64,000 bases of DNA from Candidatus Poribacteria bacterium (GCA_965197475.1 CBDANF010000002.1:352001-416000), one strand, 5' to 3'. Shown: positions 57,617-62,560, counted from the stretch's first letter. Notes: generated from the letters alone by a model not told the origin. Program-made: numbers and translations.

Positions 57617-57724
57617 AAGATTAAGCGAACCTGTCCTTTCGTTAAGCTGCGGTTAGGTTAAACCAAAACGCGCGTAGGGATGCCCTCTTGCGTCATCACG
57701 TTTTATTTCCTACACTTGTGTTTA

Positions 57725-57813
57725 TCCCGAATTACCCATAATTATTTTATTCTTCTGGGTATTAGGCACGCTTAGAAAGCGCGCCTACCGAGTGAAATCA
57801 AGTTAATTTGGTA
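57725..57813. mobile_element. MITE family D copy (degenerate left end)
   Basis: Aligns with 42873-42961 and ends gcgcgcctaccgagtgaaatcaagttaatttggta. Confidence 0.7.
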
Positions 57814-57868
57814 ATAATTTACGCAATGAGTAGTTTTGGACTTGATAAATTTGAGAAAAATTTTTCAC

Positions 57869-57897
57869 TTGACAAAATCCTGCCAGTATAGTATCCT
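57869..57897 (+). promoter_or_regulatory. Inward-facing sigma70 promoter in the IS left end
   Basis: TTGACA-17 bp-TATCCT. Confidence 0.6.
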
Positions 57898-57905
57898 ATT
57901 AACAT

Positions 57906-57984
57906 CACGAATTTTGGTAGAGAATGTTAGCCGCGTCGCAAGGCGCGGTCTCTACCTCAACCGCCTAACATCGGAAAATTCGTG
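57906..57984 (+). ncRNA. Candidate structured RNA with pseudoknot and GCAA tetraloop
   Basis: Four helices of 10, 8, 7 and 7 bp tile the segment; it begins just after the promoter. Confidence 0.65.
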
Positions 57985-58097
57985 TGTGTGAATTCGTGAA
58001 TCAATGCAACACATTTCATATATTTTATGGACTCACACAATGGAGTCTTTGCATCTAAAACCCCATTGTGCTGTGTCCTATGCCAAAGGAGTTTAGG

Positions 58098-58560
58098 ATG
58101 CACAAAAAAGTTGGACCTGGTGGCGTTATTCTTAATCCTGTAAGCACACCACCGTGGGAATCACCAATAGATGAGGTTATAATACCTCCAGCATTGTCAC
58201 GTCCAGATGAATTTAAAACCAACTGGAAACAATTGTCGTTTTCATTCAAAGGTAGAATAAACCGAAAAGACTTTTGGATATATTTCTTAGGTACTGGTTT
58301 ATTATACATAACTTTTTGGGGCATTTTTGATATATACAGTAGGTGAAATTGCGTATTACGCTTTTATGATACCAATTAGTATCGTGAAATTCTTCTGGTG
58401 TGATAACGCTGTTATCGTGAAACGATGCCATGATTTTGGTAGATCTGCTTGGTATCTTATCCTATTTTACATACCTCCGATTGGTATAGTCATTTGGTTT
58501 ATGCTTGCTTTCAGTAAAGGTGATCCCGAACCAAACAAGTATGGCAACCCACCTAAATAA
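58098..58560 (+). pseudogene. DUF805 (YhaH-like) membrane protein, frameshifted at T5 58324-58328
   Basis: FSFKGRINRKDFW in frame 1; VKRCHDFGRSAW...KGDPEPNKYG in frame 2; AAGGAG RBS. Confidence 0.82.
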
Positions 58561-58569
58561 CCCAACAAC

Positions 58570-58588
58570 GAGGGGACTCTGTCCCCTC
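58570..58588 (+). terminator. Hairpin after the DUF805 gene
   Basis: gaggggac-tct-gtcccctc; no clear U tract. Confidence 0.4.
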
Positions 58589-58609
58589 TAACCACAAAGG
58601 AGAAATCCG

Positions 58610-58861
58610 ATGAATAATTTAGTCCAAGAACAACAAGGACAACTTCAACGAAAAGAAGATATTCAGAAAGGAGTAGCAGAACTTTTAATTACTCCACTTC
58701 TGGATGACCTTGAAAAAGCATATAACGATTTTAAAAGTAAAGATTTAAAATCTATCCATCAACTAACACAGGCTTTGAGTATATTTGTGAAAAAGACAAA
58801 TGAAATTAATTCACAAGTTAGTTATGTGAATAGTGTTCTTAATTATCTTTCACAGAATTAA
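58610..58861 (+). CDS. 83-aa helical hypothetical passenger protein
   Basis: AAGGAG RBS, ATG, amphipathic helical composition. Confidence 0.6.
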   Translation: MNNLVQEQQGQLQRKEDIQKGVAELLITPLLDDLEKAYNDFKSKDLKSIHQLTQALSIFVKKTNEINSQVSYVNSVLNYLSQN

Positions 58862-59024
58862 CCTTTTGACACATTTCATCAATAAGATGAAGACCTTTGT
58901 TAAGTCTTTTTGTGTCACCGATATTCGTTCTTTTTACTAAATCAGTCATAGGACCGCGTAGGAATTGGATATGTTGTTCTTTACTGCGTGGTCCTTCTTT
59001 TCTTACTTCAATTTGTTCACTCAT
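58839..59024 (-). CDS. 61-aa hypothetical protein coupled to the transposase
   Basis: ATGA overlap with the transposase stop. Confidence 0.45.
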   Translation of the reverse strand: MSEQIEVRKEGPRSKEQHIQFLRGPMTDLVKRTNIGDTKRLNKGLHLIDEMCQKVNSVKDN

Positions 59025-59901
59025 CTCATACTTTCATTGACAAACTTATCAAAGATGCTGTCAACGCTCCTATAGTTATACTTATAGCACGCTTCCGCCA
59101 CATATAGCGGTGTGTATCCTGTCTGATAGTGGTGATGACTTCCATACCAAGCGCGTTTGAGAAGCGACCAGAAGCCCTCAATCGTGTTCGTATGGACATC
59201 ACCCTCAGCAAACTGCACCTTGTGGTTGATAACAGCGTGCTTCATTTCTTTCCCAATAGCGTTGTAAGCCTGATATTCATCGGTTATTAGTTCCGATTTT
59301 TTAGGTTTACAGCACTCCGAATAAACTCAAGGATAGTGCGTCCTGTGAGGTTGTGTGCCACTTGTGCGACAACCCTACCTCCACGCTGCACTGCTCCTAT
59401 TATAGCAGTTTTTTCAGTGCCTCTGCCACGTTTATGTGGTTCATCATCTTCACGTTTGTTCTTTTTACGAGGTTTACCGCCAATATAGGTCTCATCTGCT
59501 TCAATGATACCTTGTAGTAAAGCCCCGCCTTTCTTCGCCATTTCAGCACGGATACGAGTCATTATAAACCATGCTGTCTTTTGATTCAAGTCTAAATCGC
59601 GCGCAAGTTGATGACTTGACAAACTTTTCTTCGCATTCGTTATCAACGAAATAGCTAAAAACCACTTCTGTAACACTACCTTTGTCCCGTGAAACACCGA
59701 CCTGCACGTCACCTTGAAACTCACTTGGCACTCGTGGCAGTTCCAACGACCGATACGACCGATCTTTGTCTCCTCACGCCTGCCCACATGACCGCTTTCA
59801 CAATGCGGACACACAGGTTTACCTCGCCAACGAATCTTCTCTAAATGCGAAATACAACTCTCTTGATCCGGGAAACGTTCCATCACCTTCAACAAATCCA
59901 T
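59021..59901 (-). pseudogene. IS1595 (ISXO2-like) transposase, frameshifted at 59297-59302
   Basis: Zn ribbon CPHC...CHEC, EADETYIGGK; one added A gives ELITDEY...HAVINH...HTNTIEGFWSLLKR. Confidence 0.9.
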
Positions 59902-59924
59902 CAGATAACTCCTTGAAATAGGAG

Positions 59925-60028
59925 TTGCTTTTTCTGACGGACTTCTGATACAATATCAGATAAGATTAAACCTTCAGAAAGCAACTCTGCTTTTTGGGTT
60001 AATTGGGAGGCTACAACCTCCCTTTTTT
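59925..60028 (+). ncRNA. Predicted antisense sRNA to the transposase leader (promoter plus terminator)
   Basis: TTGCTT-18 bp-TACAAT with TG extension (59925-59954); terminator gggagg-ctacaa-cctccc + T6 (60005-60028). Confidence 0.55.
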
Positions 60029-60037
60029 CTTATCTAT

Positions 60038-60066
60038 ATTATACCATATAAACCCAGTGGACACAA
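60038..60066 (-). promoter_or_regulatory. Transposase promoter
   Basis: Minus strand TTGTGT-17 bp-TATAAT with TG extension. Confidence 0.6.
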
Positions 60067-60695
60067 GGCTTTATAGCGATTTTTAAAATTTTTTATCAAG
60101 TCCAAAACTACTCATTGCGAAAAGTATAGTGAAAAGACAAACGACTGTCAAGAATAATCAGAAGCACCGCTATGCCAAAATGGGTGTCAAGTTTTTGGAA
60201 AAGTCTGTCTACCCTCATTGTAGGAAATTGCCAGAATTATCTCAGGGCTATTTAGTTTTCGATTTTTCTTGTAGTATTTATCACAAATGTTATTTTTTAT
60301 ACGATATGCAGATGTAGCACGACACGTAGCAGGTTTATAAGGTTTTGGCGAAAATTCGCACACCTCTTTATATGGCAAGATCAACGCTTCATTACCCGTC
60401 CTACAGTAGAAGAACACAACGCACACTTCTTAAATTGAGACCTAAATGACATAATTTCACACATAAGTCATTTGGCCATTTAAGACAAATCTGTTCAGTT
60501 TTCGGAAAATACCTTGATAGATGTGCTGGTTTATCCCATGTATGGCGTGAAAAGTTGGGCTATACATAGGTTGACACAGCACTGTAAGTAACCAATTTCA
60601 CAAAACAAACGTTAATAGTAGTAGATAAGCAGGATTCCAGCGTTTTTGAACATGGAAAGCTGGAAGTTAACGGTTTTAGAAAATTCAAGCGGACC

Positions 60696-61507: not shown

Positions 61508-62560
61508 GTGATGTTAATAAGAACTAGGGCACCTGTCCGTATTGATTTTGCTGGTGGTTGGAGCGATGTCGCTCTTTTCACGGAAGAATCCAAAGGGCTT
61601 GTTGTCAACGGAGCAATAAATCGTTACGCCTACGCAACGCTTGTTTGTGAAAGCCAAACGCAATTCCCCGACTCCGTTGAACTTCAACGTGTCTTGGACA
61701 AAAAGATCCGTATCTATTCTGCCGATTTTGATACATTTGTGGAGGCTGAAGATATAAGGCAACTTGAATATGATGGTAATATTGACCTTATTAAAGCAGC
61801 TGTCCGTCAGATGTCGATCCAAATCGGAGGCTTTGATCTAATTACGCAGTCAAACGCGCCGCCAGGAAGTGGTCTTGGCACTTCCGCAGCAATGGGTGTG
61901 ACGTTAATTGGTGTGCTGGGTGCGCTTAAAGATGTAACGTATCTTCCATATCAGTACGCTGAACTTGCCAGCAGTATTGAACGCTATGAACTCGGTATCC
62001 TTGGTGGAAAGCAGGACCATTACGCGAGTGCTGTTGGTGGTATTAGTTTTATGGAATTTCAGGGAGAAGAGGTAAAGACATCGTCTTTGAAACTGCCTCC
62101 ACACATCCGCTATGAACTGGAAAAAAACCTTGTGCTTTGCTATACCGGACAATCGCGTCTATCAGGCAATATCCATCAGAATGTCACACAGGCGTATAAA
62201 AGTGGCGAACCGGGTGTTAGGAAAGCTTTAGAGAACCTAAAAGCAATCGCAGAAGCCACTAAAACTGCCCTAATTCGTGGGCGTTTAACAGATTTCGGTG
62301 AACTCTTAACTGAAAATTGGCAAAATCAGAAAAAACTACATTCATCTGTAACAAATGAACAGATTGATAAGCTTTTTAACATAGCAAAAGATCACGGGGC
62401 AATTGGCGGAAAAGCGTGTGGCGCAGGCGGCGGCGGCTGTCTTCTCTTCTACTGCCAACCGACACAAGAGCACAGCGTTCGACAAAAACTTGAAGAAGCA
62501 GGCACTCGAATTATTGACTTCAACTTTGATTTTGAAGGCCTTCAAATTTGGAAAGCCTAA
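61508..62560 (+). CDS. GHMP kinase (HddA-like heptose-7-phosphate kinase)
   Basis: APVRIDFAGGWSD, PPGSGLGTS, GGKQDHY, GAGGGG. Confidence 0.88.
   Translation: MMLIRTRAPVRIDFAGGWSDVALFTEESKGLVVNGAINRYAYATLVCESQTQFPDSVELQRVLDKKIRIYSADFDTFVEAEDIRQLEYDGNIDLIKAAVRQMSIQIGGFDLITQSNAPPGSGLGTSAAMGVTLIGVLGALKDVTYLPYQYAELASSIERYELGILGGKQDHYASAVGGISFMEFQGEEVKTSSLKLPPHIRYELEKNLVLCYTGQSRLSGNIHQNVTQAYKSGEPGVRKALENLKAIAEATKTALIRGRLTDFGELLTENWQNQKKLHSSVTNEQIDKLFNIAKDHGAIGGKACGAGGGGCLLFYCQPTQEHSVRQKLEEAGTRIIDFNFDFEGLQIWKA

Follow-up and report, generated by a model that had tools for sequence, protein, structure and literature searches.

What kind of RNA is encoded at positions 57906–57984 of a 64,000-nucleotide (nt) stretch of Candidatus Poribacteria DNA (GCA_965197475.1 CBDANF010000002.1:352001-416000), and what does it do for the genes that follow? 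We call the whole stretch the window. The locus lies within an IS1595-family insertion sequence (IS), ahead of a gene for a DUF805 membrane protein. The original prediction proposed a functional structured RNA at the start of an IS-borne transcript and listed a cis-regulator, a ribozyme, an RNA antitoxin and a protein-binding leader as options. We find that the RNA is one copy of an undescribed family of ~80 nt, located at the predicted 5′ end of selfish-gene and defence-gene mRNAs in Candidatus Poribacteria. Among the listed options, a cis-regulator fits best because the 5′ strand of the closing helix has a second partner covering a start codon, whereas an RNA antitoxin is unlikely, given the absence of tandem repeats and of a constant toxin partner. 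We therefore favour, with a probability of roughly 0.5, a cis-acting switch that would control translation by alternative pairing.

Fold and conservation of the leader RNA

All four pairings named in the original prediction, comprising helices P1, P2 and P3 and a helix that crosses P2, are present in the sequence at 57906–57984 on the + strand. The parts of the motif are as follows, with helix lengths in base pairs (bp):

57906–57984, + strand: leader RNA motif, supported by sequence, fold, covariance models R1 and R2, and pair counts on 36 homologues
57906–57915 with 57975–57984, + strand: P1, cacgaatttt/aaaattcgtg, 10 bp
57916–57923 with 57949–57956, + strand: P2, ggtagaga/tctctacc, 8 bp
57924–57930 with 57965–57971, + strand: pseudoknot (crossing helix), atgttag/ctaacat, 7 bp
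57931–57937 with 57942–57948, + strand: P3, ccgcgtc/ggcgcgg, 7 bp including one U-G pair, with the loop GCAA at 57938–57941
57957–57960, + strand: unpaired junction, uc-aa
57961–57963 with 57972–57974, + strand: P4, 3 bp

P4 was missing from the original picture; it closes a small hairpin whose loop is formed by the 3′ strand of the pseudoknot. In our refined model, the architecture is a three-way junction of P1, the P2–P3 arm and P4, in which P2 and P3 are stacked into one long arm. The loop of the P4 hairpin is modelled as kissing the internal loop between P2 and P3 over 7 bp, which forms the pseudoknot. The + strand folded at −37.9 kcal/mol, compared with a mean of −20.5 kcal/mol for 200 shuffled sequences (z = −5.33; 0/200 as stable), and the − strand folded more weakly (−31.6 kcal/mol, z = −3.9).

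Covariance model R1 was built from three copies and R2 from 36 copies. Pairs were counted in 36 distinct copies aligned to R1, and the full structure, including the pseudoknot and P4, was scored. Standard pairs were found in 97.9% of 1234 cells, as against 76.3% in column shuffles and 36–44% with slid partners; the sequences are related, and the model fitted P1–P3 but not the pseudoknot or P4. The helices are kept among these homologues while 29 of 35 pairs change on both sides. Compensatory change rose above the controls, with a covariation score of 0.612 versus 0.187 for shuffles (0/500 reached the observed score) and 0.06–0.10 for slid partners. In the pseudoknot helix, 97.2% of cells were paired and five of the seven pairs changed on both sides, and P4 covaried in all three of its pairs (CCG/CGG, CCA/TGG, CAG/CTG). 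Because the pseudoknot and P4 lie outside the alignment model, their covariation is support independent of the fit.

Four groups of the carrier IS in the window's genome, A (that of the window) to D, display the same behaviour. Between groups A and B, compensatory changes occur in P1 and in the pseudoknot (atgttaG/Ctaacat versus atgttaC/Gtaacat). Groups C and D build the same architecture from unrelated sequence: the pseudoknot reads TTTCTAT/ATAGAAA in group C and ATCTCAT/ATGAGAT in group D, and P3 of group C is CGCAACAC/GTGTTGTG. U-G pairs appear on the + strand only, the pair 34–42 being U-G in 14 of the 36 copies; this fixes the strand and argues for an RNA rather than double-stranded DNA. 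Taken together, we regard it as very nearly certain that 57906–57984 specifies a genuine conserved structured RNA.

The helices differ in how freely they vary. P2 (GGUAGAGA/UCUCUACC) is nearly invariant, with 31–36 of 36 copies agreeing in each column, and the sequences of P1, P3 and the pseudoknot are free to vary. Conserved unpaired bases are few, namely A60 and A61 in the P2–P4 junction, A65 in the P4 loop, and G36 and C37 in the P3 loop (alignment columns). An almost invariant P2 among variable helices suggests sequence-specific recognition of that helix, and the site adjoins the Shine-Dalgarno sequence and start. A host factor or a protein of the element, possibly TnpB itself in the copies that precede tnpB, could accordingly bind the domain as an operator and repress or activate initiation. 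Yet no protein is common to the downstream genes described below, so the binder would have to be a host factor, and group C retains this fold although its P2 differs (GGGCAGGA/TCCTGCCC, the 3′ strand also being given as UCCUGCCC). We consider such an operator quite unlikely.

The original prediction also placed a promoter ~9 nt before the RNA, and the promoter scan agrees:

57869–57897, + strand: sigma-70-like promoter, TTGACA, 17-nt spacer, TATCCT, 10/12 matches

As TATCCT ends at 57897, P1 starts 8 nt 3′ of the −10 hexamer, and from the sequence we infer a transcription start near 57903–57905. By eye, a comparable promoter lies at a like distance before the homologous copies inspected, and it is often preceded by a terminator-like hairpin and a T run. 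Covariation in all helices, together with this constant position after a promoter, backs the proposal of a functional structured RNA at the transcript start. In four sponge metatranscriptome libraries from one study, 46–83% of sampled sequence words were present. Library contigs span from ~57882 or 57932 to 59086 and so cover the 3′ half of the leader, the cargo genes and a portion of the region encoding the transposase; because the contigs are assembled and the libraries may contain DNA, they bear on presence only and not on start, end or strand. Contig X3 reaches back to 57882, a point upstream of the predicted transcription start. The end shared at 57932 by contigs X1 and X2 was not counted as an RNA end, nor was any meaning attached to uncovered stretches such as 59602–59783.

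Proposed alternative pairing at the start site

We named the 5′ strand of P1 X, its 3′ strand X′1, and a near copy of X′1 lying 2–16 nt downstream X′2. The features of the window that follow P1 are:

57990–57998, + strand: X′2 (gaattcgtg), alternative partner for 57906–57914, ending in GTG at 57996–57998
57996–58058, + strand: candidate upstream open reading frame (ORF), MNQCNTFHIFYGLTQWSLCI, of 20 codons with GTG start, beginning inside X′2 and predicted by translation

The sequence AATTCGTG stands in the leader at 57977–57984 and again at 57991–57998, with its complement at 57906–57913. Within the IS, no other target of the 5′ strand was found, and the only further AATTCGTG in the window is at 62272. 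This arrangement recurs in the homologues. Six or more nt of X′1 recur exactly, no more than 32 nt downstream, in 30 of 36 copies but in only 4 of 140 control windows, and 57 of 63 distinct copies, versus 16 of 126 control windows, could form a perfect X:X′2 helix of 7 bp or longer. In L071/L088, where X is CAGCGTAGTT, X′1 is AACTATGCTG and X′2 is AACTACGT, X′2 stays complementary to X. In these copies and in L050, X′1 pairs with X through G-U, whereas X′2 can be fully Watson–Crick, which indicates that the constraint is complementarity to X and not mere repeat identity.

In 49 of the 63 copies, X′2 has an ATG or GTG within it or at its edge. In copies that precede tnpB, this codon opens the TnpB ORF of 370–400 amino acids (aa; MRTYKYKI..., MRTRKLK..., MRNTTHK...), and the spacer between X′1 and X′2 is Shine-Dalgarno-like (GGAG). 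In IS1595-type leaders, it opens a short ORF (MNQ..., MNH...). Judged from these sequences, X has two co-varying alternative partners, the second of which usually holds the start codon; that is, a third segment co-varies with the P1 strand and overlaps the initiation region. A conserved (G)AAYC after X′2 was considered as a further partner, for the 3′ strand of P4, and was rejected as it showed no covariation by eye; in tnpB copies it corresponds to codons 2–3 (Arg-Thr).

The switch that we favour would have two mutually exclusive states. With X paired to X′1, the folded domain would be closed and the start site free, and translation would be on; with X paired to X′2, the start codon would be sequestered and translation off. 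The pseudoknotted domain would set or sense the balance between the two states. The trigger could be a protein, a small molecule or the kinetics with which the nascent chain folds. Since neither state precludes the folded domain and conserved unpaired bases are scarce, we would rank a protein or kinetics first and a metabolite lower. For the window copy, the start under control would belong to the 20-codon upstream ORF. A whole-leader fold of this one sequence places the stop of that ORF in the 5′ arm of a hairpin pairing the Shine-Dalgarno sequence and ATG of the DUF805 gene, so that translation of the upstream ORF may open the hairpin hiding the DUF805 ribosome-binding site.

We also compared the two pairings energetically. 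In nested-only ensembles, P1 was favoured over the alternative by a median of 2.5 kcal/mol (range −5.0 to 11.2). The two states were within 2 kcal/mol of each other in 26 of 59 copies, and the alternative was favoured in 9 of 59.

Several points weigh against the switch. The energy model, which ignores the pseudoknot, favours the ‘on’ state in most copies. Since the pseudoknotted domain is able to form in both states, its bias on the choice is unexplained, and the few conserved unpaired bases are thin for a small-molecule pocket. X′2 of the copies before GIY-YIG genes holds neither ATG nor GTG and lies 20–30 nt upstream of the start codon, and 14 of the 63 copies lack a start codon in X′2; masking of the start codon is thus not the whole story. 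X′1 and X′2 are close direct repeats, and their likeness could stem partly from duplication or conversion and not from selection for pairing. Finally, the transcription start, any processing and both modelled conformers are themselves inferred.

A rival possibility is that the RNA is a passive 5′ module that protects the mRNA from 5′-end-dependent decay and insulates the ribosome-binding site, without switching, X′2 being a by-product of duplication. The motif always lies a few nt from the predicted start and after a strong promoter, it serves unrelated genes, and P1 is the predicted dominant state in most copies, all of which suits such a module. For protection, however, a plain hairpin would suffice, and the conserved pseudoknot, the near-invariant P2 and the co-variation of X, X′1 and X′2 (57/63 versus 16/126) would be left without explanation. 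We judge the passive module rather unlikely and retain the translational switch as the preferred account. More speculatively, the junction may be a sensor for a host signal, a host protein or a ribonucleoprotein of the element, toggling a freely programmable 5′ ‘anti-start’ strand between decoy and start, or may represent a new class of self-cleaving ribozyme; we offer this pair of ideas only tentatively, as possible but doubtful.

Two further leader types were noted among the homologous loci. Past the motif in L009 (230–320), and also in L015, L025, L028 and L045, lies a second conserved leader element (…CTTGAACAGTGCATAACGCACTGG…TATGCAC…TCAAGCAAAGTGAGGT). It precedes a very basic ORF of 42–47 aa (MAKKATGTRVRDAKDGRF…), appears to be structured and matched nothing in Rfam. 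In the window's genome, IS group E (L011, 116–247), a more distant IS1595 relative with 71% identity, has a different, longer leader in which the 5′ strand (GACCAAAC), not the 3′ strand, is repeated downstream, just before the ribosome-binding site. By analogy, the group E leader may be a switch of opposite polarity.

Distribution, downstream genes and carrier element

With R1, 15 copies were detected in the window's genome, and 87 of 112 genomes from its family had a match; with R2, 102 of 151 genomes from the order did. Broken down by family, R2 matched 84 of 103 genomes of f1 and 17 of 29 of f3, all of these in one genus, but none of 11 genomes of f2 and none of 7 of f4. Because R1 and R2 both miss the 10 group C leaders of the window's genome, these genome counts are lower bounds. 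In a phylum-wide draw dominated by near relatives, R2 had no match in 11 genomes of five further families. Scanning one genome per species of bacteria and archaea with a core pattern yielded 64 stretches, of which 59 are titled Candidatus or uncultured Poribacteria and three are titled ‘uncultured bacterium’ and carry the full motif. The stretches from Saprospiraceae and Nitrososphaeraceae lack P3 and the pseudoknot and were dismissed as chance matches. Several of the named contigs share their sequences with loci of the window's own genus and family, L084 matching L072 for example. The motif also occurs in three predicted viral contigs, in each case before a GIY-YIG gene.

To describe the genes served, we extracted, for every one of the 63 distinct copies with flanks, the first downstream ORF of 60 aa or longer, which gave 60 distinct ORFs, and ran Pfam on 27 of them, hand-picked as representatives. 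The Pfam assignments among these 27 first ORFs were:

10 of 27: TnpB (OrfB_IS605 and/or Cas12f1-like TNB)
3 of 27: GIY-YIG
2 of 27: N6/N4 DNA methylase
1 of 27: MvaI/BcnI restriction endonuclease
1 of 27: AbiJ N-terminal domain with TIR
1 of 27: DUF805
1 of 27: zinc dehydrogenase, 303 nt away
8 of 27: no family

By our reading of the N-termini, about half of the 60 first ORFs are TnpB-like. The RNA is thus mainly a tnpB 5′ untranslated region (UTR) that also stands before other selfish and defence genes. The cargo operon of the IS1595 element in the window is one such use, and the RNA is not specific to DUF805. One genome (G020) has three copies (L150–L152) of a 1405-bp element with tnpB as its only gene; they are 92.7–97.7% identical and carry the promoter and motif ~70–100 nt inside the left end. 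At these left ends, a GC-rich hairpin and a T run stand directly before the −35 hexamer; from its sequence, the hairpin could be both a transposon subterminal hairpin and a terminator that blocks read-in transcription.

In the window, the original prediction of a DUF805 gene downstream was borne out by Pfam matches on both halves of a frameshift-split gene. The carrier element contains:

57822–60119, no strand assigned: IS1595-family insertion sequence, group A, 2298 bp, defined by blastn against the whole genome and alignment of 8 copies
57822–57845, + strand: left inverted repeat, cgcaatgagtagttttggacttga, perfect 24-nt inverse complement of 60096–60119, kept in IS groups A–D
58089–58560, + strand: cargo gene 1, DUF805 membrane protein (PF05656), split by a frameshift into 58089–58346 and 58327–58560
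58570–58588, + strand: hairpin gaggggac-tct-gtcccctc between the cargo genes, followed by the Shine-Dalgarno sequence aaggag at 58597–58602
58610–58861, + strand: cargo gene 2, 83 aa, from the ORF list, no Pfam match
59021–59901, − strand: IS1595 transposase, from the ORF list, frameshifted in group A (59287–59901 and 59021–59245)
60005–60031, + strand: terminator-like hairpin and T run from the terminator scan, inside the right inverted repeat and identical in groups A and B
60096–60119, − strand: right inverted repeat, perfect 24 bp

Membership in IS1595 follows from the inverted repeats and from the group B transposase, which matched DDE_Tnp_IS1595 (PF12762, 2.5e-37) and Zn_ribbon_IS1595 (PF12760, 9.5e-10). 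No target duplication was seen at the window copy, whose left flank reads ataattta and whose right flank reads aaaagtat. In the genome (5.7 Mb, 3 contigs), group A is represented by four identical copies and the sister group B by four. Compared with A, the transposase region is 92% identical in B, 83% in C and 75% in D, and the RNA stretch is 89% identical in B (121-nt query). The transposase of group B is one intact ORF of 293 aa, and the alignment shows a 1-nt gap in A. This frameshift is present in all four group A copies, and the short-read RNA-library contigs match the window at 59245–59287; group A may be mobilised in trans.

The promoter lies just inside the left end of the IS and the DUF805 gene starts ~104 nt downstream of the RNA. 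Pfam E-values for DUF805 were 4e-15 for 58327–58560 and 5.6e-4 for 58089–58346. Contigs of two of the four RNA libraries (X1 and X4) miss one base at 58313, and those of X2 and X3 equal the window; by our arithmetic, the deletion joins both DUF805 frames. The difference could be a polymorphism or slippage in the t5g4 run. Judging by its position, the hairpin at 60005–60031 possibly ends the leader–cargo transcript, which would run antisense through the transposase gene.

The cargo differs between groups. Group B has two unrelated ORFs in place of the DUF805 and 83-aa genes of group A, and groups C and D share the inverted repeat, the promoter and a block at 58562–58603 with a hairpin and a ribosome-binding site but differ in cargo. 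This block is 91–95% identical across groups A–D (including L009, L010 and L012) despite differing flanking genes, and from its sequence looks like a junction for the exchange of cargo modules. The first cargo gene of IS1595 variants usually encodes a small membrane protein. The last one, in several variants, encodes related proteins of ~90–110 aa (…F..L.DALK…FELP…) without a Pfam family (L012, 839–1111; L009, 971–1243; L010, ~522–893; L049; L045), so that the two form a two-gene module. Directly upstream of the IS, an element of ~95 nt (57722–57816) belongs to dozens of repeats on both large contigs with 72–94% identity, and may be a miniature inverted-repeat transposable element (MITE)-like or repetitive extragenic palindromic (REP)-like repeat.

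A position near the ends of mobile elements, ~85 nt inside the left end of the IS1595 element and ~100 nt inside the tnpB element, is what one would look for in a single-stranded DNA structure used in transposition or recombination, and a small RNA or antitoxin acting in trans might also be carried there. Against the DNA reading stand the strand-specific U-G pairs, the fixed position after a promoter on the strand of the downstream ORFs, and the occurrence of the motif in elements of unrelated transposition chemistry and before non-mobile defence genes. Against a trans-acting RNA or antitoxin stand the lack of tandem repeats, of a constant toxin partner and of any other target of the X 8-mer in the IS; type III toxin–antitoxin organisation in particular does not agree with a single motif unit per locus (one model match per leader) and varied downstream genes. 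A role as such DNA or as a trans-acting RNA is therefore highly improbable, and the cis-acting switch remains our preferred reading.

Relation to known RNAs and implications

The original prediction raised a link to the Rfam motifs named after DUF805, which the searches did not sustain. With the covariance models of Rfam 15, no match reached the gathering score in the 64-kb window, and none reached E ≤ 1 at 10 homologous loci. At E ≤ 10 on 57700–58200, only snoR15 (E 8.2) and mir-5444 (E 5.2) were returned, neither of which overlaps the RNA. At the sensitivity of those models, the RNA does not belong to the DUF805 or DUF805b motifs, pistol, twister, hammerhead, hepatitis delta virus (HDV)-like, HEARO, the IS605-orfB motifs or the known riboswitches. 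The sole likeness to the DUF805/DUF805b motifs is the DUF805 gene downstream of the window copy, and just one of the 27 scanned first ORFs is DUF805. In the portions available of the literature on IS1595 passenger genes, TnpB UTRs or pseudoknots, and Poribacteria RNA motifs, we found no paper on the motif. The accessible parts of PMC5737381, a paper on 224 motifs, and of a 2026 preprint do not mention Poribacteria; the supplements of PMC5737381 may list Poribacteria motifs.

The closest structural parallel to a ribozyme is pistol, in which a hairpin loop is likewise base-paired to the 5′ strand of an internal loop separating two stacked helices, and which is also small and linked to mobile DNA. 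A self-cleaving ribozyme or processing signal could trim the leader and set the mRNA 5′ end of selfish genes. Small size, a pseudoknot, few conserved bases, many copies per genome and linkage to mobile elements are a genomic signature of several self-cleaving classes, and the hairpin-loop/internal-loop pseudoknot beside a two-helix arm resembles a permuted pistol. Here, however, the hairpin lies 3′ of the arm, the internal loop has no unpaired base on its 3′ side, that is, in the strand between P3 and P2 where pistol cleaves, and no known ribozyme model matched even at E ≤ 10. A dedicated promoter directly upstream, moreover, makes 5′ trimming seem unnecessary. On the sequence features considered, a ribozyme or processing signal appears improbable. 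An HDV-like topology, examined by hand, was rejected because a tetraloop caps a long, perfect P3 and the fold lacks helices equivalent to P1.1 and P4 of HDV.

Translational riboswitches, such as those of the purine type, share with the leader a three-way junction closed by P1, a long-range Watson–Crick loop lock and a P1 strand with an alternative partner in the initiation region. In the present RNA, by contrast, it is the 5′ strand of P1 that changes partner, the competing strand is a repeat of X′1 that holds the start codon, the context is mobile and defence genes, and few junction bases are conserved. By this analogy, a metabolite or ion bound at the junction might stabilise P1 and free the start codon, and the aptamer-like size and topology, the loop lock and the competition of P1 with an alternative helix would suit that role. 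The downstream genes, however, encode transposon, nuclease, restriction–modification and Abi functions and do not make up a regulon for metabolism or transport, conservation among unpaired bases is limited to about five positions, and no Rfam riboswitch matched. We consider a ligand-sensing riboswitch very unlikely.

A different parallel is offered by fold-back inhibition in IS10, the tac/fbi pairing of hok and the leader of the MS2 maturation gene, where a stretch at or close to the 5′ end of the mRNA shows complementarity to the initiation region; in MS2, the 5′ sequence pairs with the ribosome-binding site. In the IS10, hok and MS2 leaders, alternative pairings decide whether ribosomes start on a potentially harmful gene. 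These leaders are not known to have a conserved pseudoknotted three-way junction or an internal decoy of the start region, and each belongs to a single element and is not a portable module. The omega RNA of TnpB/IscB systems (HEARO) is likewise a structured, pseudoknot-containing RNA in a tnpB transposon, with a variable segment beside a conserved scaffold. In contrast to omega RNA, the present RNA is a 5′ UTR and does not lie at the 3′ end of tnpB, its variable segment pairs in cis with the leader, it also stands before genes other than RNA-guided nucleases, and it has no HEARO match. To our knowledge, no architecture has been described that combines a loop-locked three-way junction with a decoy copy of the start region. 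In function, judged by analogy, the favoured switch most resembles leaders that control initiation by alternative pairing, namely riboswitch expression platforms, IS10, hok and MS2.

The leader would add a well-supported RNA class with a covarying pseudoknot and hundreds of copies, from an uncultivated phylum of sponge symbionts, that has no entry in Rfam 15. With its modular logic, in which a variable 5′ strand is combined with a decoy and a start site, the leader could be used as a programmable expression part. As most copies are tnpB 5′ UTRs, the family points to an unstudied layer of control over RNA-guided transposon nucleases. The presence of the same leader before nuclease, restriction–modification and Abi/TIR genes suggests that selfish and defence genes swap ready-made expression modules. 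If the proposed switch is real, TnpB transposons, homing-type nucleases, and restriction–modification and Abi genes across the phylum would share one portable translational switch.

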